IMG/VR virus record: IMGVR_UViG_3300032167_000030
Length of the DNA: 64,000 nucleotides
Source of the DNA: an uncultured virus (IMG/VR IMGVR_UViG_3300032167_000030)
Lineage: Duplodnaviria > Heunggongvirae > Uroviricota > Caudoviricetes
Reading direction: 5' to 3' (one strand)
Shown here: piece by piece, positions 2,469 to 47,945 of the stretch
Position numbering within the stretch: the first letter of the stretch is position 1
Layout: every line of letters begins with the position of its first letter
Program-made: the position numbers and the translations under genes
Notes under the pieces: generated by a model
The model's input: the letters and a program-made list of their open reading frames with translations, nothing else
Told to the model about the DNA's origin: nothing
Databases searched by the model: none

Positions 2469-2604
2469 AAAATAAATCTGGGCCTCAATTTTGTTTGAGG
2501 AAATCTCTTTAATTGCTGGAAAATATTAAGAAAGTATAATCAGCAGCTATAAAAATGTAAAAAAGAAGGGACATTTATACTGATCCCTTAACAGTATATT
2601 AAAA

Positions 2605-3798
2605 TTAAAGTTTATAAATTTTTAATGAATTTGCTTTGGCTCTAATATTCTTAGTGGACTTATGTGTTTTAAGTAATTCAGGAATATCAGGACCTTGTGT
2701 AGGATATTTTTCCTTAAGGATAGCTACTTCCTCATCGGTCCACGAACAATGAATTTTTACCTTATCTAAATTCAGTACTATTGCTTTATCCCTAATACTA
2801 TTAATAGTACGAGCCTTAAGTAATTCAGGAATATTAGATCCTTGTGTAGGATATTTTTCCTTAAGGATAGCTACTTCCTCCTCTGTCCAAGGATTTACTT
2901 TATTAGTTACATTATATTCAGTAGCCTTAATCTGAATTGCCTGATTAGTATGTGTCTTAAGTAATTCAGGAATATTAGATCCTTGTGTAGGATATTTTTC
3001 CTTAAGGATAGCTACTTCCTCCTCTGTCCAAGGATTAATTAATCTATTAATTAAACACAGATAATTTGACTTAGTTACAATTGACTGTCTAGTATGTGTC
3101 TTAAGTAATTCAGGAATATTAGATCCTTGTGTAGGATATTTTTCCTTAAGGATAGCTACTTCCTCCTCTGTCCAAGGATTACCTTTTTCTTCACTTAAAT
3201 TTAATCTAACTGCTTTATGTCGAATAGATGTTTTAGTTCGTTTCTTAAGTAATTCAGGAATATCAGGACCTTGTGTAGGATATTTTTCCTTAAGGATAGC
3301 TACTTCCTCCTCTGTCCAAGGATTAAGTTTTGGATTAATTTTAACTGGTTCGATTTTCCGTATTTTTAGTATACTTGCTTTACTACGAATTTTATCAGCA
3401 GTTCGTTTCTTAAGTAATTCAGGAATATTAGATCCTTGTGTAGGATATTTTTCCTTAAGGATAGCTACTTCCTCCTCTGTCCAAGGATTTTTTTCACTAG
3501 TTAAACCGAATTCAAATGCAGCACTATTAATAGCCATTTTAGTACGAGTCTTAAGTAATTCAGGAATATTAGATCCTTGTGTGGGATATTTTTCCTTAAG
3601 GATAGCTACTTCCTCCTCAGTCCAAGAACTACCTTTAGGTAAATTAACTAAATTTAGTTTATGAGCTTCAGCTTTAATAGCACAATTAGTATGTGTCTTA
3701 AGTAATTCAGGAATATTAGATCCTTGTGTAGGATATTTTTCCTTAAGGATAGCTACTTCCTCCTCTGTCCATAAATTAAATTTTCGTCCTTTGTTCAT
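2605..3798 (-). CDS. Intron-borne antisense Myb/SANT-like tandem-repeat protein (8 repeats)
   Basis: 8 x WT(E/D)EEVAILKEKYPTQG(SN/PD)IPELLK, each followed by a variable helix. SD GAAAGG upstream. No nuclease motif seen. Confidence 0.8.
   Translation of the reverse strand: MNKGRKFNLWTEEEVAILKEKYPTQGSNIPELLKTHTNCAIKAEAHKLNLVNLPKGSSWTEEEVAILKEKYPTQGSNIPELLKTRTKMAINSAAFEFGLTSEKNPWTEEEVAILKEKYPTQGSNIPELLKKRTADKIRSKASILKIRKIEPVKINPKLNPWTEEEVAILKEKYPTQGPDIPELLKKRTKTSIRHKAVRLNLSEEKGNPWTEEEVAILKEKYPTQGSNIPELLKTHTRQSIVTKSNYLCLINRLINPWTEEEVAILKEKYPTQGSNIPELLKTHTNQAIQIKATEYNVTNKVNPWTEEEVAILKEKYPTQGSNIPELLKARTINSIRDKAIVLNLDKVKIHCSWTDEEVAILKEKYPTQGPDIPELLKTHKSTKNIRAKANSLKIYKL
2669..3771. repeat. Eight ~75-78 bp near-identical direct repeats separated by divergent spacers of roughly 63-88 bp (coding)
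   Basis: TTAAGTAATTCAGGAATATTAGATCCTTGTGTAGGATATTTTTCCTTAAGGATAGCTACTTCCTCCTCTGTCCA near 2669, 2815, 2956, 3100, 3244, 3408, 3550 and 3697. Confidence 0.95.
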
Positions 3799-4031
3799 AA
3801 AACTTTACAACCTTTCTAAATTATAATTAAAATATACTATAAATATAATATATAATTAAAATTTTACACTTTACATTTTTATAGTTCAACGACTAATTAG
3901 TACATTCTAACTCTAGAATGGAAATAAGAGAAGATTCATAATAGAATCTTGATATAGTCTCCTCTCTATTTTATAATAGAGCAGTTGTTAAGACAACGCT
4001 TGTAGTTTTAAGTTCTACAAGGAAGATATTG

Positions 4032-4284
4032 AGAATCGGAATGCAAACGCAGCAAGCGAAACATATAGTTCCCACTGAAAAACAATCTAGAGCCTTATAT
4101 GGTTCTGGTATTGAACGTACACTACCTTATACACTATCATCTGACTTTGTATCAGTAGCAGAGCAAGATGGTGTAGTAGAAAAAGTAGATGAAAAGAATG
4201 AATTAGCAATAATTCGTTATAAAGATGGTACTTCTGATGTAATCGATATATCAGAACGTATTAGTAAAAACTCCAATGGTGGTT
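4032..4284 (+). CDS. RNAP beta-like subunit, exon 2
   Basis: RIGMQTQQAKH...SKNSNGG; the last T joins TT of exon 3 to give Phe. Confidence 0.88.
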
Positions 4285-4424
4285 GAAATTTGTATTGATC
4301 ACCTTTATAAATTTCCTTAATTGCTGGAACATACAAAAAATTGTATAATCAGCAGCTTATCTTAAAAATGTATTAAAAAAAAAGAGAGCCTAAAAAGACT
4401 CTCTCTTTGAATGTAGTAAAAGGA

Positions 4425-4562
4425 TTATTCATCCTTAAACATAAAGGGGTGAATTACTTTCTGAAAGAACTGACTTACAGCCAATCCAGCAGCATATGCA
4501 GTTGCAAAGAGAGAAGTAATATAAACGATTTCCTTAATGACTTTCTTGGTGTTGTTTTTCAT
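4425..4562 (-). CDS. Small (45 aa) putative membrane peptide, intron 2 cargo
   Basis: SD AAGGAG; MKNNTKKVIKEIVYITSLFATAYAAGLAVSQFFQKVIHPFMFKDE. Below the ORF-track cut-off. Confidence 0.6.
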   Translation of the reverse strand: MKNNTKKVIKEIVYITSLFATAYAAGLAVSQFFQKVIHPFMFKDE

Positions 4563-4595
4563 GATTAAAATCTCCTTTTCTTATTTATTTTTGGA

Positions 4596-4802
4596 TTAAA
4601 TAGGTTTATAGATATCAGAATTTAAAACATCATAGAGAATAGCAATAGTTTTTCCAATTTTTTCAGCGACATCTTTGTTTATATGAGGAAATGCAGGATA
4701 TGAGATATTACTTACTGCTTGCTCTAATTTATCAATTGCAGTTTCAATTAGATCAAAAAATCTTATATTCTCAGTAGTATCTCTAATAGTTGTATTCATC
4801 AT
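4596..4802 (-). CDS. Hypothetical protein, intron 2 cargo
   Basis: 68 aa ORF with SD AAGGAG. Confidence 0.7.
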   Translation of the reverse strand: MMNTTIRDTTENIRFFDLIETAIDKLEQAVSNISYPAFPHINKDVAEKIGKTIAILYDVLNSDIYKPI

Positions 4803-4823
4803 AGTGAAAATCTCCTTTTCTTT

Positions 4824-5363
4824 TTATGTATCTTGTGGTACAGCAGAAATGGCTTCATAACATCCTTTTACGTTATAATGAAATAAATCTTTATAAATAA
4901 TAGCGGATTCAAACCTAATTTCTCTAAGACTTCCAAACTTAGCAGTATGTAATTCAATGGCTTCTTGTTTTGCATCAAATTCTGTACAGCTAGATACGGT
5001 ACGATGAAAAATAGATTCTTTTCCAGTACACGCATCTTGATATTTCAGAGTTACATCATAAAGTTTTTCGGTTAATGCGTCTTTGAACATAGGAAATTCT
5101 TTTTCAAAATCCATAAAACCAAATGTATCGATGTAGTCTTCAATAGGATCTTCATCTGGGCAAAGAATTTCAGAAAATCTTACAAATAGTTTTGCATTAT
5201 CTTCGAAACATTTTATAGTCTTTTGATCGGGATTAGGATCATACGTGCCATTTGCTAACTTAATCATGTCTTGGTTAGAATAGATACTGGCACACATGGC
5301 TTCATAAAGAAGATAGACTTCTTGGGGAGTGAGTTCGATATTAAAAGTTTTATTAGTAGACAT
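4824..5363 (-). CDS. Hypothetical protein, intron 2 cargo
   Basis: ORF 4824..5405; SD AAGGAG favours a start at 5363 (MSTNK). Confidence 0.7.
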   Translation of the reverse strand: MSTNKTFNIELTPQEVYLLYEAMCASIYSNQDMIKLANGTYDPNPDQKTIKCFEDNAKLFVRFSEILCPDEDPIEDYIDTFGFMDFEKEFPMFKDALTEKLYDVTLKYQDACTGKESIFHRTVSSCTEFDAKQEAIELHTAKFGSLREIRFESAIIYKDLFHYNVKGCYEAISAVPQDT

Positions 5364-5438
5364 AATATGTAAATTCTCCTTTATTATAAAAACTAAAAGA
5401 GACATTTATAGTGATCTCTTAACACTCTGCTAGATTTG

Positions 5439-5795
5439 TTATCTACGCTTCATCTGATCAAAGAAATCTCTAAAAACTTGGCTATTATTTCCATCTTCAT
5501 AGATTTCCAGATCAATGTGATGTCTCTGACAGATTCTTTTGAAAGTATCAGATTTAAAGAAAGCCTTATCTCTACAATCCAGTTCATAATGATTGTAGAA
5601 ACGTCCATCTCTAGTTTCGTAGGTATCGGTAGCACCGCCCCACATACAGATTTCTTTGAAAAGGTCATTGATGAATCTGTCTGTAGTGGATACATAAGCA
5701 CGATAACCATATCCAGTGCTTAAGCAACTGAAACCTTGTTTAGTCGGATTACCAATAAGATTCATGAAGATATGACCATTTTTAGTGTTGTTCAT
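5439..5795 (-). CDS. Hypothetical protein, intron 2 cargo
   Basis: 118 aa ORF with SD GAGGAG. Confidence 0.7.
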   Translation of the reverse strand: MNNTKNGHIFMNLIGNPTKQGFSCLSTGYGYRAYVSTTDRFINDLFKEICMWGGATDTYETRDGRFYNHYELDCRDKAFFKSDTFKRICQRHHIDLEIYEDGNNSQVFRDFFDQMKRR

Positions 5796-5816
5796 TATCT
5801 AGTCTCCTCTTTGTAA

Positions 5817-6263
5817 TTAAAAAATCTCACTTTGAATGTAATCATTATAAGCATCTACTATTCTGTTTAAAGATGATGTACTGATTACATCATCATAGAT
5901 TACTGGATAGTAAAATTCTGTAAAGATTTCGTTTTTAAGATTACTATAGATACTTTCTTTGATTAGTTTATCTTTCAACTTTTTTGCATACTTAATTCTA
6001 CGTAGAGTAGTATCATTAAGAGGTTTATCTTTACAGAGATTATAGTTGATAAAGTTTCTAAGTAGTCTAATAGCTCCTGCTAGATTAAGTTTAATACTAT
6101 CTTCGTATGCTCCTAAACTTATTTTATCAATTTTTGTTACAGAGAATGATTCTACAACGTTAGGATATATCGATTTATCTATTACAAAGAAAATGATACG
6201 TTCTTTGTCGAGTTTATAAATTGCTCTTTCAAAATAGTAGAATTTATAAAATATACTTGTCAT
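5817..6263 (-). CDS. Hypothetical protein, first gene of intron 2 cargo
   Basis: 148 aa ORF, SD AAGGGAG, directly downstream of the promoter motif at 6298-6328. Confidence 0.7.
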   Translation of the reverse strand: MTSIFYKFYYFERAIYKLDKERIIFFVIDKSIYPNVVESFSVTKIDKISLGAYEDSIKLNLAGAIRLLRNFINYNLCKDKPLNDTTLRRIKYAKKLKDKLIKESIYSNLKNEIFTEFYYPVIYDDVISTSSLNRIVDAYNDYIQSEIF

Positions 6264-6297
6264 AAATAGTTCTCCCTTTTAGCTTTATTACACATTT

Positions 6298-6328
6298 ATA
6301 ATATATATTCATAAAATTTCAAATTACG
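6298..6328 (-). promoter_or_regulatory. Putative early promoter CG-N19-TATATATTAT (one of 9 copies)
   Basis: Same spacing at 3845(-, TG variant), 8466(-), 19323(-), 33548(+), 34461(+), 35492(+), 46081(-), 47745(-). Confidence 0.7.
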
Positions 6329-6464
6329 TATTTTTAAGATAAGTTCAACGACTATATTGCAGTCAAATGATTGTATAATAGGAAAGTACAATAAGATATA
6401 GTCTAATCTAAGTTGTAATAACTTAGTAGTTATAGAAGTAATGACTCTATACAAATACAAAATG

Positions 6465-7372
6465 TTTACATTTCCAATAAGAAAGATCTACTTTTCAAAG
6501 AAGGTCAAAAATTCAAAAAAGATGATATCTTAGCTAAAAACAGTAATTTCTTCTTAGGTAATAAACCTGATAGTATTACTTACACTCAAGGCTATCTAGC
6601 AAAAGTAGCTATTGCACAGGGCGATTATACTCTAGAAGACTCCTCTGTTATTACTGATGAGATTTCTGAAGGTATGTCTAGTTACATTACTATGGTATCT
6701 ACTGTAAATCTAACGCCTAATACTAACATTCTTTACATGGCAAAGAAACATCAGCATATCAAAGCTAGTGAATCTCTGATTACGTTTGAGCATACTTTTG
6801 AAGATGCTGCTGCTAATCAGATTCTAGATAGTTTAGATAACGATGATTTTGCTAGTTTCGTAGAAGAAATGGGTAAAGATAGTAAGAAGGCAAAATATTC
6901 AGGTGAGATTATAGATATCAAGGTTTACTATAATGTACCTAAAGAAATCTGTTCTGATTCTATACAGAAATTACTAAATGATTATGCTAAAGAAGTTAAC
7001 ACTAGAAAGAAGATAGTAGAACATACTGATAACAAATCTACTTTCTTCCCCAGAACTGAACAGATTAAAGATGAAAAGATTAAAGGTATAGATTTTGAAG
7101 GTATTGTAATCGAATTCTATGTAAAACATAGAGATAGATTAAAGACTGGCGACAAGGTTACTTATGGTACTGCAGTTAAGACTATCGTTAGTGACGTATT
7201 ACCTAAAGGAGAAGAACCTTTCTCTGAAAGATATCCTGATGAAAATATACTAGCAATCTATTCACCTATGAGTATTGTATCTCGTATGACTACAGATACT
7301 TATAACATGCTATATACGAATAAGCTCATAATTGAGATGAAACGTAAAATGAAAGAGATCTGGGAAGCCTAA
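6465..7372 (+). CDS. RNAP beta-like subunit, exon 3
   Basis: GDYTLEDS (cf. GYNFEDS), GDKVTYGTAVK (cf. GDKMAGRHGNK), SPMSIVSRM (cf. NPLGVPSRM). Confidence 0.88.
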
Positions 7373-7381
7373 TCTAACAAT

Positions 7382-7419
7382 TTTTATCCTAATACCTGAA
7401 ATATGGTATTAGGATAAAA
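7382..7419. terminator. Intrinsic terminator-like hairpin after RNAP gene
   Basis: TTTTATCCTAATACC...GGTATTAGGATAAAA inverted repeat. Confidence 0.6.
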
Positions 7420-7472
7420 CTTATAAAAAAAGAAGGGACATTTATAGTGATCCCTTAACACTTTTATTAAGA

Positions 7473-7760
7473 TTACTCTTCGCTAAATTCAATAAGTTCA
7501 GCATTATAGCAAAAAGCAACTCTATGAAGAATTTCATTAGTCCACATAGGATAAGAAATTTCCTTCTTTTCTATAAAAGGACGTCCATCTTGAATATGCT
7601 CAAAATAGCATTTACCAGCTTCATATGTAAAGAAATACTGATCGTCATCAAATTTATGATCAAATTTGATAGCAGAATATTGGTAAAAATTATGTATCAA
7701 CTGGTATTCAAGATTTTTTGCAGTTTCTATGTCTTCAATAGTGATGAGTTTATTAGCCAT
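7473..7760 (-). CDS. Hypothetical protein
   Basis: 95 aa ORF, SD GAAAGGA. Confidence 0.7.
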   Translation of the reverse strand: MANKLITIEDIETAKNLEYQLIHNFYQYSAIKFDHKFDDDQYFFTYEAGKCYFEHIQDGRPFIEKKEISYPMWTNEILHRVAFCYNAELIEFSEE

Positions 7761-7805
7761 TGTATGTTTCCTTTCTGGCTTAAAAGCCTGTGAGGATGTA
7801 TATTT

Positions 7806-8435
7806 CTAACTATTTACTAAACTAAATGTATAGATTAGACTATTTTCATTTTTAGATAAAGTAATATCATCTAGTTTAAAGAAGTTTATTGAAAGATCAT
7901 AACCTTTTTTATTAACTTCCCTAATAGTAGCTAATAAAGCACATTTAGTTAAGAATTTTTTATTTTTGATGATATTTTCTCTAAACTTATTGAAATCAGG
8001 TTTTTCATCATTATTCTTTTTCATGAAAAATTTTACCTTTATGAAATCAAAATCCTCTATTTTTTCTATTGTATTTTCAATATAAACCATAGGATATGAT
8101 ACAATTTCATTAAGTTTAGTTTTATGCATGAAAAATATTGGATCTTGTAAAGAAATTTTATAAATAATTTTTTTCAATTCATCTATATTCATACCATCTT
8201 TGATATTTTCTTTTATCAAATTTTTTAAATGATTAAGATTTGTTCTTTCAATAAACTCAGGTAAAAATTCTTTAATAAATCCTTCAAAGCTAATACGACT
8301 TTCAAAAGAACTAAAATAAAATCCTCCATATGGTTTACGTCGGTTATAATGATGAACAATAAAGGTATAAGTATCACAGTCGAAAGATATTGCTGAATAT
8401 GGACGTTCAGTAGTATATAAGTGAATAAAGTTCAT
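7806..8435 (-). CDS. Hypothetical protein
   Basis: 209 aa ORF, SD AAGGAG, promoter motif at 8466-8496. Confidence 0.75.
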   Translation of the reverse strand: MNFIHLYTTERPYSAISFDCDTYTFIVHHYNRRKPYGGFYFSSFESRISFEGFIKEFLPEFIERTNLNHLKNLIKENIKDGMNIDELKKIIYKISLQDPIFFMHKTKLNEIVSYPMVYIENTIEKIEDFDFIKVKFFMKKNNDEKPDFNKFRENIIKNKKFLTKCALLATIREVNKKGYDLSINFFKLDDITLSKNENSLIYTFSLVNS

Positions 8436-8545
8436 ATAGTCTTCTCCTTTTATTTTTCTATAGGTATAATATATACCTATAATTTTTCAAATTACGAATT
8501 TTTACTTTTCTTTTATTTATATATTCTTTTTATAGAATTTATTAT

Positions 8546-8788: not shown

Positions 8789-8801
8789 GGGAACTGAAAA
8801 T

Positions 8802-21410: not shown

Positions 21411-23201
21411 TTGGCGGATAAGAAAAAAGAATTAACTTTAAAAGATCAGCTAGATCAATTTAGAGCTGTATCTAAATTGTCTACATCTGAATTATATGGA
21501 ACTACTGAAAAATTTGCAGATGATAACTATAAAGATCTTTCTGACATTAGAAATACTATAGATAGTGTTATGTTTAGATATAAGAAATCTACTGGTGATG
21601 ATATCATAGAATTTTTTAATGCAGTTAACATGAAACATAATTCTAATGTTGGTCGTCCTAGTCGTTCTGCAAAAACAGAACATGTTAAAAAACAACTTTC
21701 AGATATTGAAAGTATGGTAAATAATACTGATATCTATTCTATGAATGAATTATTCAGTCAAGAATCAGGACGTTTCCAACTTTATAGTAGTTATCAGCTA
21801 ATCTATGAGAATATACCCCAGATGGCTCAAGCCTTGGATACTTATGTCGATAATATAATGTCACCTGATGATTTTACTAAAGATATCTTTAACATCTATC
21901 TAGATGATGTTATTATTTCTACTACAGAAAATAAAGGTGAAAATGTTAAGATAATCGATAATTGTAAGGATCTAATTAAAAAGTATAAATTAGACACTCA
22001 ATGTAAGAGAATTATAAAAGAAACTTTAAAATTAGGCGATCAATTTGTTGCAGTTTTAAAGATGAACGATGAAATTTCAAAAGTAATGTTATCTGAAGAT
22101 TATAAAAGTAGTATGGAAGCTACTAATAAGTCTTTAACAGAATCAGATATTACTTTAACTGATGATGAAATTGTTCAACTAGCTGAAATGTTTGATTTAT
22201 CTAATGTAAAAATCCCTCAGAATAATCCTCCTTCAATATCTGATTATAAAAATTATACTGATAAGAAAAAACTAAATGAAGCTTATCAACATGACTTAAA
22301 AATCTATAACGAGGAAGTAAAAGTATTTAATGAAGCTAAACAAAGGCTCTCACATGATATAGCTGAGATTCTAAATAAGAACTTTGTTTTTACAGAGGAT
22401 TCATCTTGTCTATTAGAAGACAATGTAGAGATATCTAAACAATTTGGAATTAGTAGTAAGAAAAACTTATTCAATAATTTCCAAAGCCAAAATAAAGAAG
22501 ATAGAAAGAATCTAAATCCTTTCTCTAAAACTAAATCTACTGATGAAATTCGAGTAGGTGGTTCTGTATTAAAAGTACTAAAACCTGAGAGAGTTATTAA
22601 GCTAGTTTTAGATGACTTTGAATATGGTTACTACTATATTGAGAATCTAGAAAATAATGCTGATATGCTAACTACTGGTAGTTACAGTGTATCTTCTAAC
22701 ATCTTTACTTCTTTTAAATCACAGGCAAATGAAAAACCAGATATCATTAATGCTAAGTATAGATTAATAACTGATGTCTTTGTTAAGAATATGGCAAAGA
22801 AAATTGATAAGAAGTTTATCAATAAAAATCCTGATTTTAAAAATACTGTCTATCAGTTACTAAAGCAGAATTACTTACTTAATAAACAAGTTAGAATGAT
22901 TTATTTGAAAGCTAGTGAAGTAGTACACTTCGGTAGTGGTACTGAAGATTACTATGATAGTATTTATAAATCCATTCTATTTAGTGCTAAGCTATATTTA
23001 GCAGTTTTAACTTCACAGGTTATGTTAAGACTAGTAAGATCACCTGAGAAACGTGCTTTTTATGTTGAGGTAGATCTTGATAATGATACTGAAGCTGTAG
23101 TACAACAGTTCATGAGAGATATTAAGACTAAAGATATTAAGATGAGTAACTTTGGTCAAGATATTAATACTCTTTTAAATGCTATAGGAACGTTCCAAGA
23201 T
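21411..23201 (+). CDS. Portal protein (T4 gp20-like), exon 1
   Basis: RLVRSPEKRAFYVEV (cf. gp20 RITRAPDRRVWYVD). Spliced product is 842 aa. Confidence 0.85.
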
Positions 23202-24302
23202 TAAATAATAGTCGTCTATATTAGTGATAGTATAGAGAATTATTTCAAGAATTGCTGGAAAAATCTGTACAAGTATATTTAAAACTGGGTACTAGAAACA
23301 ACAATTTATTAAAAATAGTTTCTAGGGGGCAGTTTTATGATAAATAAAATTATTGATGGAATTATAGTAAAATTTGATTCCGATATAGTTTGTTCTGAAA
23401 ATCGAATTATAAAAGACATTAAAGCTATTAAAGATCATTTATTAGAAATAAATGAGTCCGATAGATATTTTGAATGTCTTTATAAATTAGAAGAAGATTC
23501 TAAATCAAAACATAATCGTCTTTTTATAAAAACTAATGATAAATGTGGACATGGTGATTATATAGTAAGATTTGATAAATTCAAAAAAGGATCAAGATGT
23601 CCAGAATTTGATTGTAAATTAAAACGTGTAAATAAAAGTAAAGAAATTAATAAAAGAAAAGAAATAATAGAATTTGTTAATAATAGTAATTATGATTTTT
23701 TTGATGATGATATAAATAAATCAATAATTCAAATGTCTGAAAAAGGATATAAACTACGTTTATTATGTCCTTATTGTAAACATCTTTATGAAACAATGTA
23801 TTACAATTTTAAAGCAGGATATGGATGTGGATGTAGACATGGTTCTAGAGCTGAAGAAAAGATTCAATCATTCTTAGAATCAAAAAATTTTAATTTTGTT
23901 TCAGAAAAGAAGTTTGACGATTTGGTTTATATCGAAAAATTAAGATTAGATTTTTATTTACCAGATTATAATATTGCAATTGAATTTGATGGTGAGCAAC
24001 ATAAAAAAGGATGGAATAAAGATCCTGAAAGTTTGAAAATCACCAAAATTAGAGATCAGATAAAAGACGAATATTGTAAAAATAATGGAATAACTCTTCT
24101 AAGATTTGATAGAAAAGATTATAAAAATCTAGAAGAAATACTTGACAGATCAATCAGCAGCCTTATAAAAGGTTCAAAGACTATGTAGTATATAAGTTGT
24201 ATACTCTGTATGAAACAACTATAAAGATAGTTGAAGATATAGTCTATTCTCATATGAAAATATGAGTTTAGAGTTTAACAAACTCTGAAATAATAAGCAA
24301 AG
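23202..24302 (+). mobile_element. Group I intron 3 (1101 nt) in portal gene, with homing endonuclease
   Basis: P 23250, Q 24152, R GTTCAAAGACTA 24172, S 24234, terminal G24302. Splicing gives FQD|YYIP. Confidence 0.9.
23337..24188 (+). CDS. Intron-encoded putative homing endonuclease (Zn-ribbon + DUF559/Vsr-like nuclease domain)
   Basis: CPYC-type Cys pairs; LRLDFYLPDYNIAIEFDGEQH...RDQIKDEYC...GITLLRF. Confidence 0.8.
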   Translation: MINKIIDGIIVKFDSDIVCSENRIIKDIKAIKDHLLEINESDRYFECLYKLEEDSKSKHNRLFIKTNDKCGHGDYIVRFDKFKKGSRCPEFDCKLKRVNKSKEINKRKEIIEFVNNSNYDFFDDDINKSIIQMSEKGYKLRLLCPYCKHLYETMYYNFKAGYGCGCRHGSRAEEKIQSFLESKNFNFVSEKKFDDLVYIEKLRLDFYLPDYNIAIEFDGEQHKKGWNKDPESLKITKIRDQIKDEYCKNNGITLLRFDRKDYKNLEEILDRSISSLIKGSKTM

Positions 24303-24350
24303 TATTACATTCCTGTAGTTGAAGGACAAAAACCTGTTGAAATAGACACT
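24303..24350 (+). CDS. Portal protein, exon 2 (48 nt)
   Basis: YYIPVVEGQKPVEIDT (cf. gp20-family DYWLPRR..GKGTEITTLPG). Confidence 0.85.
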
Positions 24351-24563
24351 TAAAGTTTAGGGTAGGTGTCTCTAAATTTTCTTAATTGCTGGAAAATGCT
24401 TAACGTACAATCAGCAGCCTTTTAAATAAGGTTCAACGACTATATAGTACGATGTAAATACATTGGATATAGAAAACATAGAAGATATAGTCTGATCTCT
24501 AGTTTAAAATCTAGAGCATAATTCAAAAGGTGCAAGCTTAATAGACTTGTATTAACAACTATG
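24351..24563 (+). mobile_element. Group I intron 4 (213 nt, no ORF) in portal gene
   Basis: IGS GGTGTC pairs with exon GACACT. P 24384, Q 24409, R 24431, S 24482, terminal G24563. Splicing gives EIDT|IPGM. Confidence 0.92.
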
Positions 24564-25253
24564 ATCCCTGGCATGAATGTAGAGATCACTAATGATTTCT
24601 TAGAATATCTATTAAAGTCTATGATTTCTGGTATGGGTATTCCCCCTGAATTCTTAAGTTATTCTGAACAAACAGAATTTGCTAGATCACTAGGAATGAT
24701 GAACGGTAAGTTTGTTCGTTCTATTCTTGTTTGGCAGAAGATTTTAGGTGAACAATTCACTAAGATGTTCCGTTTACTATATCAGAATGAATACCTTAAT
24801 GATTATGATCTTAAGAAAGCTGAAAAGAAACTAAAGAAACTTAATCAAAAGCCTAAAGATGATACCGTATTAGTTGATACTGAAGAAGAAAAGGATCATG
24901 TAGCTAAAACTAGAGCAGAATTAAAAGATACTTATTTCAATCTAGAACAACTATCTGTTAAATTCCCTCCCCCTCAAGCACTTAACATGACTACTATAAC
25001 TGAACGTATCAATAATTCTAGAGATATAATAGATTTTATAACTAACACTATGGTATCTCAGGATAATGCTGAATTACAAACTGAATTTAGACGAGAATTA
25101 ACTAAAGATATTCTTAATACTTTTGATTGGAGTAAATACGATAAAATCCTTGAATCCGCAAAAGTTAATAAAACAGAGACTTCTATTAAAAATTCTTCTA
25201 TTGAACCTACTGATGACGCATCATCAATGGGCGGAGGAATGGGAGGATTCTAA
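24564..25253 (+). CDS. Portal protein, exon 3
   Basis: IPGMN...YLLKSMISGMGIPPEFL...KFVRSI; continues the portal alignment. Confidence 0.85.
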   Translation: MPGMNVEITNDFLEYLLKSMISGMGIPPEFLSYSEQTEFARSLGMMNGKFVRSILVWQKILGEQFTKMFRLLYQNEYLNDYDLKKAEKKLKKLNQKPKDDTVLVDTEEEKDHVAKTRAELKDTYFNLEQLSVKFPPPQALNMTTITERINNSRDIIDFITNTMVSQDNAELQTEFRRELTKDILNTFDWSKYDKILESAKVNKTETSIKNSSIEPTDDASSMGGGMGGF

Positions 25254-40285: not shown

Positions 40286-41839
40286 TTAACCTCCTAAATT
40301 TTTCATTCTGTATTTTATTAATCCACAATTCCAAACTCTTAAATAACCAGCTTCTTGCATCATTTGCTTTTCAGTTTTAGAATCATCATATATTTCTGGA
40401 AATAGTTTTTTAATCTTATCCTTTCTAAATCCAAATTTATGATGTAACACTAATTCATTTCTTTTATAGTATTTATAATCTGGTTTAGTATAACTTTCAA
40501 TATAGAAATTATTTTTCTCATACATATTTCCTATAGACCAAGTTCTATCAGCAAATGATATAATAGAATTAAATTCATAGTTTCTAGTAAAATATTTTAA
40601 TAGTTTACTAAATCCTCCTTCAATGATATAATTATTATCACTAGCATATCTAGAAAGGTTATATTCGATATCATTAGAATTGTTATTAGTTCTTAAAAAT
40701 GTCATAACTGCAATTAATTGATTCATTTCTTTTTGTTTTTTAGGTATATAATGTTTATAATAAAGACCTAGATTTATAGTAGTTGTTTTATCTGAACCTT
40801 GAATATGATTTTTATTAAGAAATTTATTCTTTAAATCATCATCAATTTCTTTTATGGTACATTTTCTAGCATATATTTTATACAAATCTGTACTTTCATG
40901 TAAAATATACTTTATTTTTGATTTGACAATTTCTTTTGAATTATACCAATCATTCTCAAATATATGTATTAAACGAATACCATTATTTTCACAATCTTTA
41001 GTTTTATTATAATGATACCATCTATCACATTTACCATTACTACCTTCTTCACTATGCCAATATAAACCATTATATTCTATTGCAAGTTTATCATCTGGTA
41101 GATAAAAATCTAACTCTTGACCCTTTAAAATAGTTCTATCATTAAGAATAATTGTTTTTTTATAAAAAGATTTTAAAAATTCATAAATTTCATCTTCTGC
41201 TTCAGATCTATCCTTTAAAATTTTACATTTAGGACATGGAACAGAATTCTTTTTCAAAGTTGTTTTAAAGTAATCTGGATTAATTGAAAAAATATGTTTA
41301 CAAGAATTATGTCTACATTTTAAATTCTTTCTTTTTCCTTTATATTTTTCCATGAATGTGTATTCACTACCAACTAAACTAAAAATTTCTTTTTTAAAAT
41401 CTTGATCTGATTTTAAGTTATTAGTACTATTTTTCTTACAAGTATCTATTATAATTTCTTTAGCACATTTAGGACATCTTTTTCCATTTTGAAAATTAGT
41501 ATAACTTACATTATATTCATGATTACAGATTTTATGTCTAATTTTAACTGGTGTATGAACATTTGTAATAGTTTTTTCTAGAAGCTCATATTCATTATTG
41601 GCTTCATTTTTGATTGTATCCTTGAAATCTTTTATTGTTATTTTTTGTTTACCATTACATTTAGGGCAAGATTTATACCGTTTAAAATCCTTTGGCCATC
41701 TTTCAAATTCATGTCCAACAGGACATCTGAATTTCATTGAAGTTTTATTATTTTTATATTCAGATAAAATTTCAAAACCTTGATTTAGCAATTCTTTGCA
41801 TTCTAATACATATTCATCATGTGTTTTAAGCATTATCAT
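40286..41839 (-). CDS. Free-standing Hef-like homing endonuclease with Zn-ribbon repeats
   Basis: Three C..(G/N)H...CPKC modules; ELDFYLPDDKLAIEYNGLYWH; YARKC.IKEI...FLNKNHIQG; WNCG C terminus. Confidence 0.75.
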   Translation of the reverse strand: MIMLKTHDEYVLECKELLNQGFEILSEYKNNKTSMKFRCPVGHEFERWPKDFKRYKSCPKCNGKQKITIKDFKDTIKNEANNEYELLEKTITNVHTPVKIRHKICNHEYNVSYTNFQNGKRCPKCAKEIIIDTCKKNSTNNLKSDQDFKKEIFSLVGSEYTFMEKYKGKRKNLKCRHNSCKHIFSINPDYFKTTLKKNSVPCPKCKILKDRSEAEDEIYEFLKSFYKKTIILNDRTILKGQELDFYLPDDKLAIEYNGLYWHSEEGSNGKCDRWYHYNKTKDCENNGIRLIHIFENDWYNSKEIVKSKIKYILHESTDLYKIYARKCTIKEIDDDLKNKFLNKNHIQGSDKTTTINLGLYYKHYIPKKQKEMNQLIAVMTFLRTNNNSNDIEYNLSRYASDNNYIIEGGFSKLLKYFTRNYEFNSIISFADRTWSIGNMYEKNNFYIESYTKPDYKYYKRNELVLHHKFGFRKDKIKKLFPEIYDDSKTEKQMMQEAGYLRVWNCGLIKYRMKNLGG

Positions 41840-41996
41840 TTTCCTTTCTTAAGAAGAATTTACTCTATAAAAATAAAATATATTTTAAAAATTTGTTAGA
41901 AATTAAAAATATTTTTACAAAAAAAAACAATCTCCTAGACTAAAAAGATCTAGGAGATTGTCATTATTTAATTAGCGTAAATTCTTATTAAGATAA

Positions 41997-42180: not shown

Positions 42181-42415
42181 CTTTTAGTTTTTATACATTC
42201 ATTAGATGTATTTAATCATTAATTTTCATTAATGAACAGACTATATCTTTAACCTAACTATTCTCGCTATCATTAGGTCATTTTGTACTAAATTATCATT
42301 TGATAATCATATAGTCGTTGAACCTTTTATAAAAGGATGCTGATTTACCTTATAGTATTTCCAGCAATTCTCAAAATAATTCTATATTGTTGCCAATATA
42401 GTGGCCTATTAATTA
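42181..42415 (-). mobile_element. Group I intron 5 (235 nt, no ORF) in major capsid gene
   Basis: Minus strand: IGS GGCC pairs with exon GGCT. P 42369-42358, Q 42345, R 42323, S 42249, terminal G at 42181. Confidence 0.9.
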
Positions 42416-43920
42416 AGCCTGTCGATACCAGGAACGAAGAACATAATAAATGCACCAGAAGGAACTAAGTCACTAGAGACCATTTCATACTTGTTAGCAC
42501 CACTAAAGGCACCGAGATTGAAAGAAACGTCAACACCAGACATCTGGTCAGAAGTATGATTGAAGACCCAGTCAACATTAGGAATGATCTGCATGTCAAT
42601 GGGGTTACCAATGATCATGAACTTACCACCATGGAACTTAGCATCAGTCTTCATCTTGATAGCAAAGTAGTCAATGACAGTCTTTAGTTCTTCACGCCAT
42701 GCTTTAGGAGTACCATTGAAGCCAGCAGAAGGAACCATGTTGAACTCACCTAGATACTGGATGTTGTTAACTTCGATAGACTTAGCTAGGAAGTTATAAA
42801 TCTCAATTTCTAGCTGCTGTGCAACAGTCTGAGACATTAGGTCAACAACTTCAGCTGCACCATCGATATTGTAGATAGCCATAGTGTCCTGTAGCCATTC
42901 GATGGGTAGAGGAGCATTTAGGTGGCTGCCAACACCGATAGTAACGTCCTTAGTTAGAACGTCGAAGCTGACGGACTGACCATAGTCATTAGCTTCCTGA
43001 GATAGACGAGCGTCAACCATAACAGCAGAGATTAGGCCGTTGGAGGACATTAGAGTCATCTTGCCTTCAGTGTAGTCAACTTTACCTAGTAGAGTATCAT
43101 AGACTTCGCCATAACGCTTGGTTAGACCAGTAACAGGATCGGTATACTGAACAGGAATAGCAACCTTAGCATAAACTAGAGCCTGTAGATCAGTCTTGAT
43201 ATGAACTCTTAGAGTGACTTCATCGATATCAGCAGGAACTTCAGGTAGAGAAGCAGCAGCCTTTAGGACAGCAGCCTTGTCAGTAACGACATGCTCAACA
43301 TAGAAGACCTTATCAATGGTGTCAGTACCCTTTAGACCAGCAACATCGAAGCCAACAGGCTGACCTTCATAATCAGCAGAGTCAATCTCGAATAGGCTGA
43401 AGTCAGTCATAGGTAGAACTAGACCTTCTGCAGGGTTACGGAAACGAGGTAGCTGAGCCTCAGTGTTACCTAGATAGTTGATAGCATCAGGTAGTTCTTT
43501 CTTATTACCATTAGCATCCATTAGATATGCCTTGGTGTAGGAAATAGCGAAACGAGGAGTAGCAACTACCTGAGTAGGAATAGCGTGCTTTAGAGCAACC
43601 TTTGCCCACATCTTACGAATGGTAGGCATAGATAAGCCAGCGATCTGCTGTACACCAGAGACAGAAGCTTCCTGTAGCATCTGAGTACGAGCATTATCCA
43701 TTAGCTGATTGAAGTTCTCAATCTGATCGGGTTCCATACCCTCTAATAGATGATCTTTATATTCGTTAAATAGAGTCTGTTCAGATAGAATCTCTTCCAT
43801 ACCCTGATGGGAGGTCATCTGAATGCCCTTATCTGCAAAGAATTCTGCAGCTTCACGTAGTACATCGGTAAAACCATCGTTCATTCTGGAACGAGCGGTC
43901 TGACGGTATTCAATAGACAT
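42416..43920 (-). CDS. Major capsid protein, exon 1 (spliced product 562 aa)
   Basis: Strongest codon bias in the window; located near the protease; T4 gp23-like C-terminal region (EWLQD...YNIDG..EVVDLMS..VAQQLEIEI). Confidence 0.8.
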
Positions 43921-44153
43921 AATTTGAATTTATCATACACTCTTTCTTTTTGATTAAGTCTATTTTAGATAAAAAAGAGAAATAATCAAAAAATGTATGA
44001 TTTCCTCCTTTCATTAAGAAATAATTTTGAATTTTGTTTGATTTAATATAATCTGATATATTGTTTTGTTTTATTTACTATAGTATAGACGTAACTATAG
44101 TAAATATATGATTAGTAGACTATTGATTTGTTTGATTTTTAATTAGAAAAATT

Positions 44154-44753
44154 TTAAGATTTTTCATTATATGCATCATTTAGCTGTTTTAGCATATCAC
44201 TATATAGCTTAGTTGCCATTTTTAGATACATATAGATTGTTAATAACTGTTGGTAAGAAAGATTTAAATATTGTTCTGTCATTATAATAACTATTTTTTC
44301 TTTATTCTCTTCCATCTTATGAGTTATAAAATTATAAATCTTTTTTGCATCTTCTGGAAGATCTTTAGCTAAGACATTAGAAGAAATATCTTCTAAATTT
44401 TCAATAACAGTTAATAAATCTTTATAATCTTTAAATAGTTTTCTTTTTTTGAAAACATCTTTAACAGGAGGTTGACCCATACTAGGATCAGTTCCCATAT
44501 TACCATCAGTACCACTCATAGAAGGATCCATATCTCCGCCACCCATATCCATTTCTTCCATTCCAGGATCCATATTCATATTACCTTCACCCATGTCATT
44601 TTCTGTACCCATAGAAGCATTCTGTTCTTGAGGTTCAAAAGCAGCATTGTCTTGTGAGGTTTGCATAGTGGCTGTTTGACCCATAGCATCATTAGGTGGT
44701 GCTTCATTTAGTAGGGATAGTAAATATTCTTCACTATATTTTTTTATAGACAT
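44154..44753 (-). CDS. Putative head assembly/scaffold-type protein
   Basis: Met/Gly/Asp-rich low-complexity region; LNE site; upstream of the capsid gene. Confidence 0.45.
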   Translation of the reverse strand: MSIKKYSEEYLLSLLNEAPPNDAMGQTATMQTSQDNAAFEPQEQNASMGTENDMGEGNMNMDPGMEEMDMGGGDMDPSMSGTDGNMGTDPSMGQPPVKDVFKKRKLFKDYKDLLTVIENLEDISSNVLAKDLPEDAKKIYNFITHKMEENKEKIVIIMTEQYLNLSYQQLLTIYMYLKMATKLYSDMLKQLNDAYNEKS

Positions 44754-44774
44754 AATTAATTAACCATCCCTTTC

Positions 44775-45419
44775 TTAAAATGTATAATTTCTAGGTTTAT
44801 TCTTTTTCATTTTAGCTGTTTGTTCTTCGATATGAGAAAGTTTATAATTAAATTCTAAACGTTTTATATTCATATCTAATTCAGCTGACATTTTCTTTAA
44901 TAGAATTAGTTGCTCTTTTTGATCATTAGAAATCTTTTTCATTTTTTCTAATTGTTCAATCTTAGCAACAACAGCTTCTTTATCACCTTTTAGTTTTGTA
45001 TATAAATTTAGAATTTTTTCTCTTTCTATTTTTCCTAATGCTGGAACATTATTAACAGCAGCTTTAGTAAGTGCCATTAAAGGTATACCAATTGTTTTAC
45101 CAACAAATGGAAATTTTGTACATAATTTATAAAGGATATTACTATGATAACCAAATCCTTTAATTAAGTACTCTTCGTCTTTTATACTCTTTTGCATTCT
45201 CTTAAGTAAAGCAGTACTCTTATTTAAAAGATTCTTTTTCTTATTTAGAACTTCAGGATTAGAATTACTCTGATCTAAAGTTTTCTTATCTTTACTATCA
45301 TATAATGTCATTTCTTGTAATAGTCTCTTACTATCGTTTTCAATTTCTTGTAAGATTTCGTTAGAAAATTCCATATATAAATTAAACACTCCTTTCTTTA
45401 CTAGAATTAGAAAGTTCAT
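44775..45419 (-). CDS. Hypothetical virion protein (likely start 45374)
   Basis: ORF with SD and AACA-N6-TA at 45444-45455. Confidence 0.55.
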   Translation of the reverse strand: MNFLILVKKGVFNLYMEFSNEILQEIENDSKRLLQEMTLYDSKDKKTLDQSNSNPEVLNKKKNLLNKSTALLKRMQKSIKDEEYLIKGFGYHSNILYKLCTKFPFVGKTIGIPLMALTKAAVNNVPALGKIEREKILNLYTKLKGDKEAVVAKIEQLEKMKKISNDQKEQLILLKKMSAELDMNIKRLEFNYKLSHIEEQTAKMKKNKPRNYTF

Positions 45420-45558
45420 AGTTAAGTATTTTCTTATCTAATTTAATAAAATGTTGAAACTAATGATTTTTATAATAAAACTAGTATTTTTAGATAATAA
45501 AGATTCAACATTTCATTATATGATACCCTTATTTTAAAGAAAGGAGTTGTAATGTATT

Positions 45559-45792
45559 TTGAGAGATGAAAAAATTAAGGGATATATCATTTCTGAAGAT
45601 GCTATATCTACTACACCTAGAATTATTAGTGATAAATCTGGTCAACCTACTGTAATTGAAACTATATTACAAGAGGGTGATGTACAGAATCGTAATAAAC
45701 GTATTTATCCTACTGATACTATTAAGAAAGCTTTAACTTCTGAATATGTACAGGAAAGATTAAATACTAAGTCTTGGGTTGGAGAAGCAGGT
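45559..45792 (+). CDS. Prohead core protease (T4 gp21-like), exon 1
   Basis: LQEGDVQNRNKRIYP...WVGEAG. Spliced product is 264 aa. Confidence 0.88.
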
Positions 45793-46265
45793 AAAATAAG
45801 GATTGCCTAACCATAATGATAACATATGGTTTTAACTATTCTTAAATGCTGGAAACTATAAAGAATTTAGTTTATACAATCAGCAGCTTAGATAAAAACT
45901 AAAAAAAAAAGAAACCCCATTATAAGGATATAAATAACCTTTCTTTAGATTATCTAACTTTTGGGAAGTTAATGGGATTTTCTTTTTTTAGAGAATATTT
46001 CTTCTTTTGTATACTATGTTAAAAAGTTCTAAAGTATTATTTTTATTATAATACAGTTTTCTTTTGTATAGTACAAAGTGATTATATATAGCTATAATAG
46101 TACGCTTTACGTTTTATCTAAGTTCAACGACTATAAAAGAGTTTTAGTAAGCTCGTAATAGAAAAGTATTCTTATTTATAAGGATAGAGATATAGTCTAA
46201 TCTAGGTAGAAATACTTAGCTTTTTAATGAAGTTATAGAATTAACGATTCTATATAAAGAAAATG
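45793..46265 (+). mobile_element. Group I intron 6 (473 nt) in protease gene
   Basis: IGS GCCT pairs with exon AGGT. P 45844, Q 45878, R 46122, S ~46189, terminal G46265. Splicing restores GEAG|HP. Confidence 0.92.
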
Positions 46266-46521
46266 CATCCATTATCTCCAACTGTTGAAAGACAATTGTA
46301 TATTGATCAATCTAATTTATCTCACTTAATTACTGATGTATGGTGGGAAGGTAATTTACTAAAAGGTCGTGTCGAAACCTGTTTAACTGAAAGAGGTAAA
46401 GACATGCAAGGTTTAATCAGACAAGGAATGCAAGTAGCATTCTCAATGAGAGGATTTGGACCTGTTTCTGAAAAGAAAGGTGATATTACTTATATCAAAG
46501 ATCCTCTACACATTTTAACGT
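46266..46521 (+). CDS. Prohead protease, exon 2
   Basis: HP...SHLI...AFSMRGFG (cf. gp21 GVSSRG.G). Confidence 0.88.
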
Positions 46522-47945
46522 AGATTGTGCGATTATAACTAGTAATAGTTATACTAAATCTCTTTAATTGCTGGAACATACAAAAAATTGTATTATCAGC
46601 AGCTTAAAAACGTAAAAAAAAGATCCCATTATAAAATAATGGAATCTTTTTATAGAATTATTTAATAAGTTTTAGTCCTTCCTTAAAGGCTTTTCCGATA
46701 ATTGCATTTTTATTTCTAGTTTTAAGTAATTCAGGAATATTGGATCCATTAATTGGATAATACTTTTTAAGAAGATCTAATTCATAATCTGTCCAACTAT
46801 CTTCCAATTTAGATACTCGTTCAATTCTAGCTTTAGTTTTAATTGAACTTGTAGTTCTAGTTTTAAGTAATTCAGGAATATTGTATCCATTAATTGGATA
46901 ATACTTTTTAAGAAGATCTAATTCATAATCTGTCCAAGGATCATTATCTCGTTCACCTAATCCTAATCTAATTGCTTGATTAGTAATTGCCACTACAGTT
47001 CTAGTTTTAAGCAATTCAGGAATATTGGATCCATTAATTGGATAATACTTTTTAAGAAGATTTAATTCATCTACAGTCCAATGTTTTTTACTTTTTCTTT
47101 TTGGATTATTTGGACTAATTACAAATAACTTTTCCTTACGTGCCATGTCAATAATTGAATATGCAGTTCTAGTTTTAAGCAATTCAGGAATTTTGTATCC
47201 ATTAATTGGATAATACTTTTTAAGAAGATCTAATTCATAATCTGTCCAAGGATCATTACACTCTAATTTTAATAATCCTTCGATATTAGCTCTACTCCTA
47301 ATTGCATTTTCAGTTCTAGTTTTAAGCAATTTAGGAATATTAGATCCATTAATTGGATAATACTTTTTAAGAAGATCTAATTCATAATCTGTCCAAGAGT
47401 CTTCTGTTTTAGTTAATCCTTCGATATTAGCTCTACTCCTAATTGCATTTTCAGTTCTAGTTTTAAGTAATTCAGGAATATTAGATCCATATGTCGGATA
47501 ATATTTCTTAAGAAGATTTAATTCATATTCAGTCCAAGGTTCATTAAAATCGAGATTAACTAGATTCATTTTAAATGCTTTTGTTCTAATTGCTACTGCA
47601 GTTCTAGTTTTAAGTAGTTCAGGAATATTTACACCTTTAGTTGGATATTCTCGTCTAAGAATTTTTAATTCTTCTTGCGACCAATGTTTTTTAGATGTAG
47701 ACATAAAAACACTCCTTATGTTATGTAAAGATTAGTACACATTTATAATATATAAATAAAAATTTTTTAATTACGTTTTTAAGTTCAACGACTATTAGTA
47801 CATTCTAAATCTCTTAAGAATGGAAATAAGAGAAGTCTTTTATACCGCACATATAGAAGATTTTGATATAGTCTCACCTTTGTTTTATAACAAAGTAGTT
47901 GTTAAGACAACACTTATAGTTTAAAGATCTATAAGGAAGATACTG
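46522..47945 (+). mobile_element. Group I intron 7 (1424 nt) in protease gene
   Basis: P 46566, Q 46594, R 47783, S 47865, terminal G47945. Splicing gives ILT-Y-DWVLHPS. Confidence 0.92.
46658..47704 (-). CDS. Intron-borne antisense Myb/SANT-like tandem-repeat protein (7 repeats)
   Basis: 7 x WTDYELDLLKKYYPINGSNIPELLKTRT-like units, each with a variable helix; SD AAGGAG; paralog of 2605..3798. Confidence 0.8.
   Translation of the reverse strand: MSTSKKHWSQEELKILRREYPTKGVNIPELLKTRTAVAIRTKAFKMNLVNLDFNEPWTEYELNLLKKYYPTYGSNIPELLKTRTENAIRSRANIEGLTKTEDSWTDYELDLLKKYYPINGSNIPKLLKTRTENAIRSRANIEGLLKLECNDPWTDYELDLLKKYYPINGYKIPELLKTRTAYSIIDMARKEKLFVISPNNPKRKSKKHWTVDELNLLKKYYPINGSNIPELLKTRTVVAITNQAIRLGLGERDNDPWTDYELDLLKKYYPINGYNIPELLKTRTTSSIKTKARIERVSKLEDSWTDYELDLLKKYYPINGSNIPELLKTRNKNAIIGKAFKEGLKLIK

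Follow-up and report, generated by a model that had tools for sequence, protein, structure and literature searches.

The terminal loop of helix P6 in several group I introns of an uncultured tailed virus (IMG/VR record IMGVR_UViG_3300032167_000030; Caudoviricetes) probably houses an autonomous transcription unit, consisting of an early promoter, cargo and usually a terminator, that reads antisense to the late gene in which the intron lies. We analyzed a 64,000-nucleotide stretch of this genome (the window), which is the reverse strand of positions 222170-286169 in a 319,626-bp virus record and has a G+C content of ∼28%. Four introns are at the center of the analysis, two in the gene for the beta subunit of the virion RNA polymerase (RNAP) and two in the gene for the prohead protease. 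The closest DNA matches of window positions 1-8000 and 45400-48400 were virion RNAP beta and head-protease genes, respectively, with 68-80% identity over short exon stretches, and they belong to the Bacillus phages AR9, PBS1 and BpSp and to Staphylococcus jumbo phages. Judged from its sequence, the source is an AR9/PBS1-like jumbo phage.

Results

Four group I introns interrupt the virion RNAP beta and protease genes

Excision of 2469-4031 and 4285-6464 from the beta gene joined exons 3-2468, 4032-4284 and 6465-7372 into an open frame of 1209 amino acids with 0 internal stops. Excision of 45793-46265 and 46522-47945 from the protease gene likewise joined exons 45559-45792, 46266-46521 and 47946-48250 into an open frame of 265 amino acids, again with 0 internal stops. 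Each upstream exon ends in T (2468, 4284, 45792 and 46521) and each intron ends in G (4031, 6464, 46265 and 47945). With the frames restored and these terminal nucleotides in place, the four borders given in an earlier reading made from the sequence alone (the sequence-only reading) proved exact.

2469..4031, plus strand: group I intron 1, virion RNAP beta gene, after codon 822 (frame, empty site, covariance model)
4285..6464, plus strand: group I intron 2, virion RNAP beta gene (frame, covariance model)
45793..46265, plus strand: group I intron 3, prohead protease gene (frame, covariance model, empty sites)
46522..47945, plus strand: group I intron 4, prohead protease gene, paralogue of intron 1 (frame, covariance model)

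The AR9 annotation joins six pieces in the homologous beta gene and two in the protease gene; introns in these genes were thus already known for the phage family, and a passage of the MarsHill preprint also recognizes introns in the RNAP beta and protease genes of this family. By homology, the counterparts of the host genes are AR9 late gene g189, which encodes the virion RNAP beta subunit, and the genes for the head protease and the terminase; this supports the earlier view that the hosts are late genes, to the extent that the AR9 transcription study describes them (PMC5312081). We also noted the AR9 late-promoter consensus, AACA-N6-TA, at window positions 45507-45518, ∼40 nt upstream of the protease ribosome-binding site; a match of this kind is expected by chance about once per kb per strand.

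The conserved R motif GTTCAAnGACTA occurs 15 times in the whole genome and seven times in the window. Seven group I intron cores were found there, the number that had been claimed.

3884, 6343, 24172, 24431, 46122 and 47783, plus strand: R motif GTTCAAnGACTA
42323, minus strand: R motif GTTCAAnGACTA

The sequence-only reading had proposed the Rfam group I intron model RF00028 as the means of placing the inserts, and this part did not hold: at the gathering threshold (50 bits) the model gave 0 matches in the whole window. Below the threshold, the whole-window search scored 45.1 bits (E 2.9e-8) and 30.7 bits on two short introns near 24.2-24.5 kb. Narrower searches gave sub-threshold scores of 29.3 and 23.8 bits for the 3′ halves of introns 3 and 4, and no match for introns 1 and 2 at E values up to 1. 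In the four introns, inserts of 0.2-2 kb split the model. We therefore built a custom covariance model from a trimmed alignment of six introns of this genome that have no insert, one of them the intron with the 45.1-bit score. In these six, the helices P4, P5, P6, P7, P8 and P9 were recovered by RNAalifold, with 37 pairs, 19 of them showing compensatory changes; P6 showed covariation in three of its five pairs. The custom model matched both halves of all four introns on the plus strand, with E values from 3e-8 to 0.064.

2503-2565 / 3873-3983, plus strand: intron 1, halves matched by the custom covariance model
4311-4449 / 6314-6428, plus strand: intron 2, halves matched by the custom covariance model
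45836-45905 / 46088-46221, plus strand: intron 3, halves matched by the custom covariance model
46558-46700 / 47773-47897, plus strand: intron 4, halves matched by the custom covariance model

The four elements are true group I introns, and they are predicted to self-splice.

Relatives carry empty alleles at three of the four sites (1, 3 and 4). In a 299-kb IMG/VR relative (L053/L054; 89% protein identity), site 1 is empty, exon 1 being joined straight to exon 2, and the same holds for a DNA contig of run X2, in which 2467 is joined to 4032. The remaining joints in contigs from four DNA runs had sides of 20-24 letters and were left out of the analysis. Sites 3 and 4 are both empty in L062/L063, and site 4 is empty in L067, where the site 3 intron is present without a P6 insert. 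In the 299-kb relative, the intron at site 3 is uninterrupted and gives a full-length model match of 96.7 bits. AR9 itself has introns at precisely sites 2 and 3, each of ∼300 nt and free of P6 cargo; all 12 covariance-model matches in AR9 are contiguous, at 199-271 nt.

The inserts lie in P6 beneath a lengthened stem

The break between the two model halves falls at P6 in every one of the four introns, which is where the sequence-only reading had put the inserts, and the extended stems that it had written out are perfectly paired throughout.

2547-2561 / 3870-3884, plus strand: P6 stem of intron 1, 15 bp, 100% paired
4356-4369 / 6330-6343, plus strand: P6 stem of intron 2, 14 bp, 100% paired
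45887-45897 / 46112-46122, plus strand: P6 stem of intron 3, 11 bp, perfect
46603-46615 / 47771-47783, plus strand: P6 stem of intron 4, 13 bp, perfect

The P6 helix therefore comprises 11-15 perfect base pairs with an insert, compared with 4-8 in seven insert-free helices of the same genome. At site 2, the stem of 14 bp in the window is 15 bp long in the 299-kb relative, the difference being a paired A/T insertion. A non-intronic early cassette beside the RNA polymerase gene (7416-8510, minus strand) has the same promoter and a 28-nt terminator module (see below) and lacks a flanking inverted repeat. The long stem therefore belongs to the intron context and not to the cassette, and we discarded the idea that the cassettes come with terminal inverted repeats of their own. 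Such a stem would keep the ribozyme foldable.

The inserts carry matches to the early promoter on the minus strand

At their minus-strand start, the inserts bear the motif [CT]GTA-N17-TATATATTAT, with the variant TATATATAAT in intron 3. This motif agrees with the consensus AAATATATATTAT-(6N)-G of AR9 early promoters; in the section of the AR9 study that deals with it (PMC5312081), the consensus was established by differential RNA sequencing and primer extension and attributed to the virion RNA polymerase. An annotated AR9 promoter was also inspected. Cassettes 1, 2 and 4 and a further cassette in a terminase intron (see below) have the core TATATATTAT without mismatch, and N6 is followed by G in cassettes 2 and 4. 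The claim that the CG/TG end of the promoter lies at or within the 3′ strand of P6 was borne out, the end being inside that strand in cassettes 1 and 4 and adjoining it in cassette 2.

3838..3875, minus strand: early promoter of cassette 1 (TGTA-N17-TATATATTAT-N6), TGTA within the P6 3′ strand (motif match)
6291..6328, minus strand: early promoter of cassette 2 (CGTA-N17-TATATATTAT-N6-G), adjoining the P6 3′ strand (motif match)
45898..46111, minus strand: cassette 3, with promoter CGTA-N17-TATATATAAT, ∼170 nt, no open reading frame (ORF) and a U10 tract (motif, fold)
47738..47775, minus strand: early promoter of cassette 4, CGTA within the P6 3′ strand (motif match)

By itself, the core TATATATTAT is not enriched, with 14 exact sites in the genome versus 22 expected from composition. 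The upstream [CT]GTA stands at a distance of exactly 17 nt at 10 of the 14 sites, and 4 of these 10 are in intron P6 loops. A relaxed promoter pattern had 43 matches in the genome, compared with 9-28 in ten Markov-1 random genomes. From the match to the AR9 early-promoter consensus, we infer that the cassettes are transcribed early by the injected virion polymerase.

The other end of each insert, next to Q, had been described as a hairpin with a U-tract. This description fits introns 2 and 4 well and intron 1 weakly. For cassette 3, folding gave no clear terminator hairpin (z -0.1), and there is only the U-tract.

2566..2594, minus strand: weak terminator hairpin and U6, cassette 1 (-7.7 kcal/mol, z -1.4)
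4379..4408, minus strand: strong intrinsic terminator, cassette 2 (-16.3 kcal/mol, z -6.9)
46617..46651, minus strand: strong intrinsic terminator, cassette 4 (-15.9 kcal/mol, z -6.3)

A 28-nt terminator-hairpin module recurs at window positions 2567-2594, 5398-5425 and 7434-7461, and at 8304-8350 and 8718-8762 of L053, at the ends of cassettes and between cargo ORFs. The module is 97.9% identical between the window phage and its relative, whereas the flanking DNA is merely 73-88% identical.

The cargo is non-nuclease and turns over between relatives

ORFs of at least 45 amino acids with ribosome-binding sites in the four inserts are all on the minus strand. Together with the promoter matches and the break at P6, these ORFs agree with the proposal of self-contained P6 units antisense to the host gene.

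2605..3798, minus strand: cargo 1, a 397-amino-acid protein with eight Myb/SANT-like repeats (PF00249, 1.1e-18, 67.5 bits; cut-off 24.4)
4425..6263, minus strand: cargo 2, five ORFs of 148, 118, 193, 68 and 45 amino acids with ribosome-binding sites (ORF calls)
46658..47704, minus strand: cargo 4, a 348-amino-acid protein with seven Myb/SANT-like repeats (PF00249, 4e-25, 88.1 bits)

The cargo had been called non-nuclease, a description that recognizable homing endonucleases would have contradicted. We found no LAGLIDADG, GIY-YIG, HNH, His-Cys or PD-(D/E)xK nuclease domain in any of the seven cargo ORFs of the window using Pfam, PHROGs and PADLOC. Neither the five intron 2 ORFs nor the 12 ORFs of L053 had a family in these three collections. 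The 148-amino-acid protein matched only itself among 5.8 billion protein clusters; in the Atlas it gave only chance-prone scores, on a poor model (predicted local distance difference test score 0.46), and its match to XisH was weak (E 0.096) and below the cut-off.

Turnover is clearest at site 2, where the cargo amounts to nothing in AR9, 2.0 kb with five ORFs in the window, and 5.3 kb with 11-12 ORFs in the 299-kb relative (L053). The minus-strand ORFs of L053 are 64-314 amino acids long, and only one small ORF resembles one of the five in the window. The flanks are kept in L053, namely the intron, the P6 stem (with one more pair), the type of promoter and the terminator module; the interior is replaced. 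The comparison of related phages that had been suggested for cargo turnover therefore gave a positive answer. Site 2 also suits the idea of the intron as a neutral landing pad; "neutral" is doubtful for the two Myb cassettes, which are co-inherited with their intron and whose homologues are fused to LAGLIDADG domains in 5 of 55 cases (see below).

A fifth cassette lies outside the window, in an intron of the terminase large-subunit gene, which we identified by its similarity to AR9 TerL (38% identity, E 3e-64). Its P6 stem is 15 bp long and the promoter is again the same; an 89-amino-acid membrane-type protein and a terminator complete the unit, which is antisense throughout. Diverged copies of the protein are present in two relatives with many synonymous differences, the cargo is conserved between L005 and L008, and the terminator shows compensatory changes; on these grounds we argue that the gene and its hairpin are functional. 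Overall, four of the five cassettes encode proteins with ribosome-binding sites.

The Myb-repeat arrays belong to one intron lineage

In every Myb repeat of the two proteins, the first 27 residues are near-invariant down to the DNA (94% mean nucleotide identity in the 397-amino-acid protein), and the following 15 residues are hypervariable (48% nucleotide identity). The variable segment aligns with the recognition helix (helix 3) of c-Myb (alignment to c-Myb R1-R3, E 0.005). The combination of a constant scaffold and a hypervariable segment resembles modular DNA-reading arrays. Among 55 homologues of the arrays, we observed fusions to LAGLIDADG_2 (five), LAGLIDADG_3 (one), a treble-clef zinc finger (one) and helicase domains (five).

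The whole genome has two Myb genes, both intronic. Introns 1 and 4, which carry them, are paralogues from end to end, and this extends to the cargo (2816-4031 versus 46722-47945, 66% over 1271 nt, E 2e-78). Intron 4 has a 5′ half that most resembles the corresponding half of intron 2 (80%), a sign that introns may have recombined with one another. Sites 1 and 4 are both empty in the relative with 89% protein identity, and the Myb composite element, which lacks a recognizable nuclease, has therefore recently moved or been lost. The two Myb cassettes alone showed two traits of homing-endonuclease genes, namely joint inheritance with the intron and an intron that is polymorphic for presence or absence. 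The Myb protein was not found in five related records, in a search that had no positive control.

Antisense intron genes occur in other large phages

The annotation of Bacillus pumilus phage vB_BpuM-BpSp (KT895374) splits the beta gene into three separate genes, and three minus-strand genes labelled "hypothetical" lie in between. One of these, gp249, occupies P6 of the first intron; a TGTA-N17-TATATATTAT-N6-G motif runs out of the 3′ strand of P6, and a terminator stands beside the 5′ strand. Another, gp247, is antisense in P6 of the site 2 intron. The third, gp246 (306 amino acids, antisense), lies just downstream of R in the site 2 intron (L264 4940-5880), in a loop that holds a short P7.1-type hairpin in other BpSp introns; P6 is therefore not the sole slot. 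A fourth gene, gp190, is antisense within the protease intron. No Pfam family was found in gp249, gp247 or gp246. The publications that name BpSp together with introns deal, in the excerpts available, with another subject than antisense intron genes.

We searched IMG/VR with a pattern in which the early promoter is antisense and beside R, so that the orientation was built into the query. This returned 50 loci, among them close relatives with variant cargo and other large phage contigs (the L003 group and L044). The antisense intronic ORFs of L003 and L044 are homologous (38% identity, E 2e-19). We rejected three candidates as introns: L018 and L024 had no covariance-model match at all, and L015 had none at its R-like motif.

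Some inserts are non-coding. In the L019 group (eight IMG/VR loci, for example on a 263,786-bp contig), P6 holds an antisense unit of ∼350 nt with an early promoter and a terminator and no ORF of at least 50 amino acids; this relatively G+C-rich unit may specify a small RNA. In the genome of the window phage itself, the P6 insert of L059 (G000:C1:173500-174400, R at locus position 520) is 198 nt long, has no early-promoter motif on either strand, and has a hairpin and T-run in the sense direction; its only Rfam matches are the intron halves. More generally, no Rfam family besides the intron halves was found in the non-coding inserts of L019, L011, L059 and L022.

Weighing the alternatives

Three other explanations of the inserts deserve attention. 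In one, the Myb cassettes of introns 1 and 4 are the mobility or maintenance factor of the intron lineage itself, a derivative or partner of a homing endonuclease that has no nuclease, whose seven or eight repeats would recognize an extended sequence, for example the empty homing site. The whole-length paralogy of the two introns points this way (their 3′ halves are mutual best matches at 80%, compared with 58-72% for the others), as do the purely intronic location of both Myb genes, the empty sites that suggest recent gain, the LAGLIDADG and zinc-finger fusions, the contrast between scaffold and recognition helix, and the intactness of both paralogues at 49% amino-acid identity. Against it, both proteins lack a nuclease domain and, being filled by the repeats, have no space for one; the remaining three cassettes have unrelated cargo or none, and the best PHROGs family is "transcriptional regulator". 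We regard this account as possible for the two Myb introns, though on balance unlikely. A more elaborate proposal is that the Myb arrays target the empty site of the intron and drive or guard its spread without a nuclease of their own, and that the P6 slot lets early genes hitch-hike on homing between co-infecting jumbo phages; this we consider distinctly doubtful.

Another explanation had been offered as an addition by the sequence-only reading, in which the cassettes serve to produce an antisense RNA; by pairing with late pre-mRNA, it would slow or adjust the splicing of RNAP, protease and terminase transcripts. Such RNA would by construction be fully complementary to part of the intron, and the absence of an ORF from cassette 3, and of any ORF of at least 50 amino acids from the L019-type and L011 inserts, would agree with it. 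However, four of the five cassettes encode proteins with ribosome-binding sites, one of them conserved at the protein level. In the two introns with strong terminators, moreover, the unit ends before the catalytic core, and pairing would be confined to the dispensable loop. These findings speak against a delay of splicing, which we judge improbable. The last alternative takes the minus-strand ORFs for random frames or relics of decay, and the inserts for sense endonuclease genes that have degenerated. It draws on the abundance of short ORFs in AT-rich DNA and on cassette 3, which has none. This alternative is very hard to reconcile with ORFs of 397 and 348 amino acids whose Pfam Myb matches far exceed the cut-off, with the lack of any sense ORF above 95 amino acids in the inserts, and with a cargo protein conserved in relatives and homologous antisense ORFs on separate contigs; we give it next to no weight.

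We thus favor autonomous antisense early units in the P6 loop, and several observations besides the built-in orientation of the 50-locus search weigh against this reading. In place of the expected G after N6, cassette 1 and the terminase cassette have an A. The promoter core of cassette 3 deviates at one position, and this cassette has no ORF and no clear terminator hairpin; according to the relevant section of the AR9 study, one deviation from the consensus can silence an early promoter (PMC5312081); the earlier claim of a common promoter at the start of every insert thus stands for cassettes 1, 2 and 4 and is weakened for cassette 3. P6 of another intron in the same genome contains a sense ORF of 257 amino acids that is LAGLIDADG-like, so P6 accepts sense genes, and the statement that every insert opposes its host gene applies to the promoter-bearing cassettes. 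A sense-oriented unit would place a terminator and translated ORFs in the pre-mRNA; however, two of the five terminators have U-runs in both directions and look bidirectional, so the argument that a sense terminator would be lethal is a weak explanation of the orientation. Finally, we sampled IMG/VR with less bias, taking 76 introns that share the R and S motifs from the first 80 loci listed. Within this sample, 19 introns have an insert before R; 9 of these inserts have a sense ORF of 100-252 amino acids abutting R versus 3 with antisense ORFs only (60-100 amino acids), 4 have no ORF, and 3 have a mixed or distant ORF. On this sample, sense endonuclease genes are the overall rule and antisense cassettes the speciality of this phage group.

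A model for the intronic cassettes

We propose that, early in infection, each cassette would be read backwards from its virion-RNAP promoter and that transcription would halt short of the ribozyme core. Late in infection, the host gene would be transcribed through the cassette; the P6 helix of 11-15 bp would clamp a loop of 0.2-2 kb, and the ribozyme would fold and splice. The helix incorporates the A/T-rich upstream element of the promoter. Because the host genes are late, like AR9 g189, transcription of the cassette and of its host would be separated in time. There would be two kinds of cargo. Variable sets of ORFan early genes would be gained and lost between conserved promoter and terminator modules, probably by recombination via these modules, as has been proposed for the PeSL cassettes discussed below; the Myb-repeat DNA-binding gene would belong to one intron lineage and move with it.

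Sense endonuclease genes and further introns in the window

Two further introns of the genome have sense endonuclease ORFs, which are positioned elsewhere than in P6. A virion structural protein gene (phrog_3004; 21411-25253, plus strand) is interrupted by two neighboring introns with cores at 24127-24268 and 24376-24516. The intron with the core at 24127-24268 has a sense endonuclease ORF of 283 amino acids (23337-24188; phrog_559, 3.2e-40) between P4 and P4′, outside P6. The major head protein gene (42409-43920, minus strand; phrog_20655, 1e-121; G+C ∼40%) is followed by an insert-free intron at 42215-42377, beyond which lies an HNH-type homing endonuclease ORF of 517 amino acids (40286-41839, minus strand; phrog_559, 1.7e-124).

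Discussion

Phage group I introns are seen as vehicles for one sense homing endonuclease. Here and in relatives that include a cultured Bacillus phage, the dispensable P6 loop would be a slot for backward early genes under their own control, with contents at one site that range from none to about a dozen genes. Introns would let new phage genes accumulate inside essential late genes at no coding-density cost to the mature message, and, if the intron homes, the cassette genes could spread along with it. The layout also points to a ribozyme that tolerates kilobase inserts, with P6 lengthened by the promoter sequence of the cassette. For annotation, it is a reason to inspect the opposite strand of introns, given that the four such genes of BpSp are filed as hypothetical between RNAP and protease "fragments".

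In our full-text literature searches, in which the 2016 AR9 genome paper in Virology was not covered, we did not find phage group I introns described as carrying early cassettes that are antisense, non-nuclease and multi-gene. In a 2014 review of bacterial group I introns (PMC3984707), the words "antisense", "opposite" and "orientation" are absent.

The nearest known case is AR9 early gene g190, which has its own early promoter inside an intron of the late gene g189, as the corresponding section of the AR9 study reports (Lavysh et al. 2017, PMC5312081). The phage family and the host gene (virion RNAP beta) are the same, and so is the combination of an early promoter and a gene within a group I intron of a late gene. 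However, g190 is annotated as a sense HNH homing endonuclease, whereas the cassettes described here are antisense and non-nuclease, have up to five genes (11-12 in the relative), and sit in P6 under a lengthened stem.

More broadly, peripheral helices of phage group I introns can hold homing-endonuclease ORFs in their loops, as with I-TevI in the td intron of T4. These introns share with ours an ORF in a terminal loop, an intact ribozyme core and expression separate from that of the host gene, but their ORFs are sense-strand nucleases that mobilize the intron.

Outside phages, a protein gene opposite to the host gene of its intron is known from the antisense His-Cys-box homing endonuclease genes in nuclear ribosomal DNA group I introns (PMC9548176, in the part that covers them). 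In contrast to the phage cassettes, these are eukaryotic single nuclease genes and have no phage-type promoter-terminator arrangement.

A group I intron loop can also hold many genes, as does that of the ND5-717 intron. This giant mitochondrial intron of corallimorpharians is described in the pertinent section of PMC6545197. It resembles our introns in having several ordinary genes in one loop; those are core organellar genes in the sense direction, unlike the antisense early operon of ORFans here.

The cargo itself is reminiscent of the PeSL promoter-terminator cassettes of T4-type phages, as characterized in excerpts of two studies (PMC2839356 and PMC4122927), the former of which proposes motif-mediated exchange. 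In both systems, variable ORFan early genes stand between conserved early-promoter and stem-loop motifs; the PeSL genes are swapped among close relatives, and the intronic cargo differs between such relatives. The PeSL cassettes lie between genes in hyperplastic regions and not in introns, and for the intronic cassettes exchange via the motifs is our suggestion.

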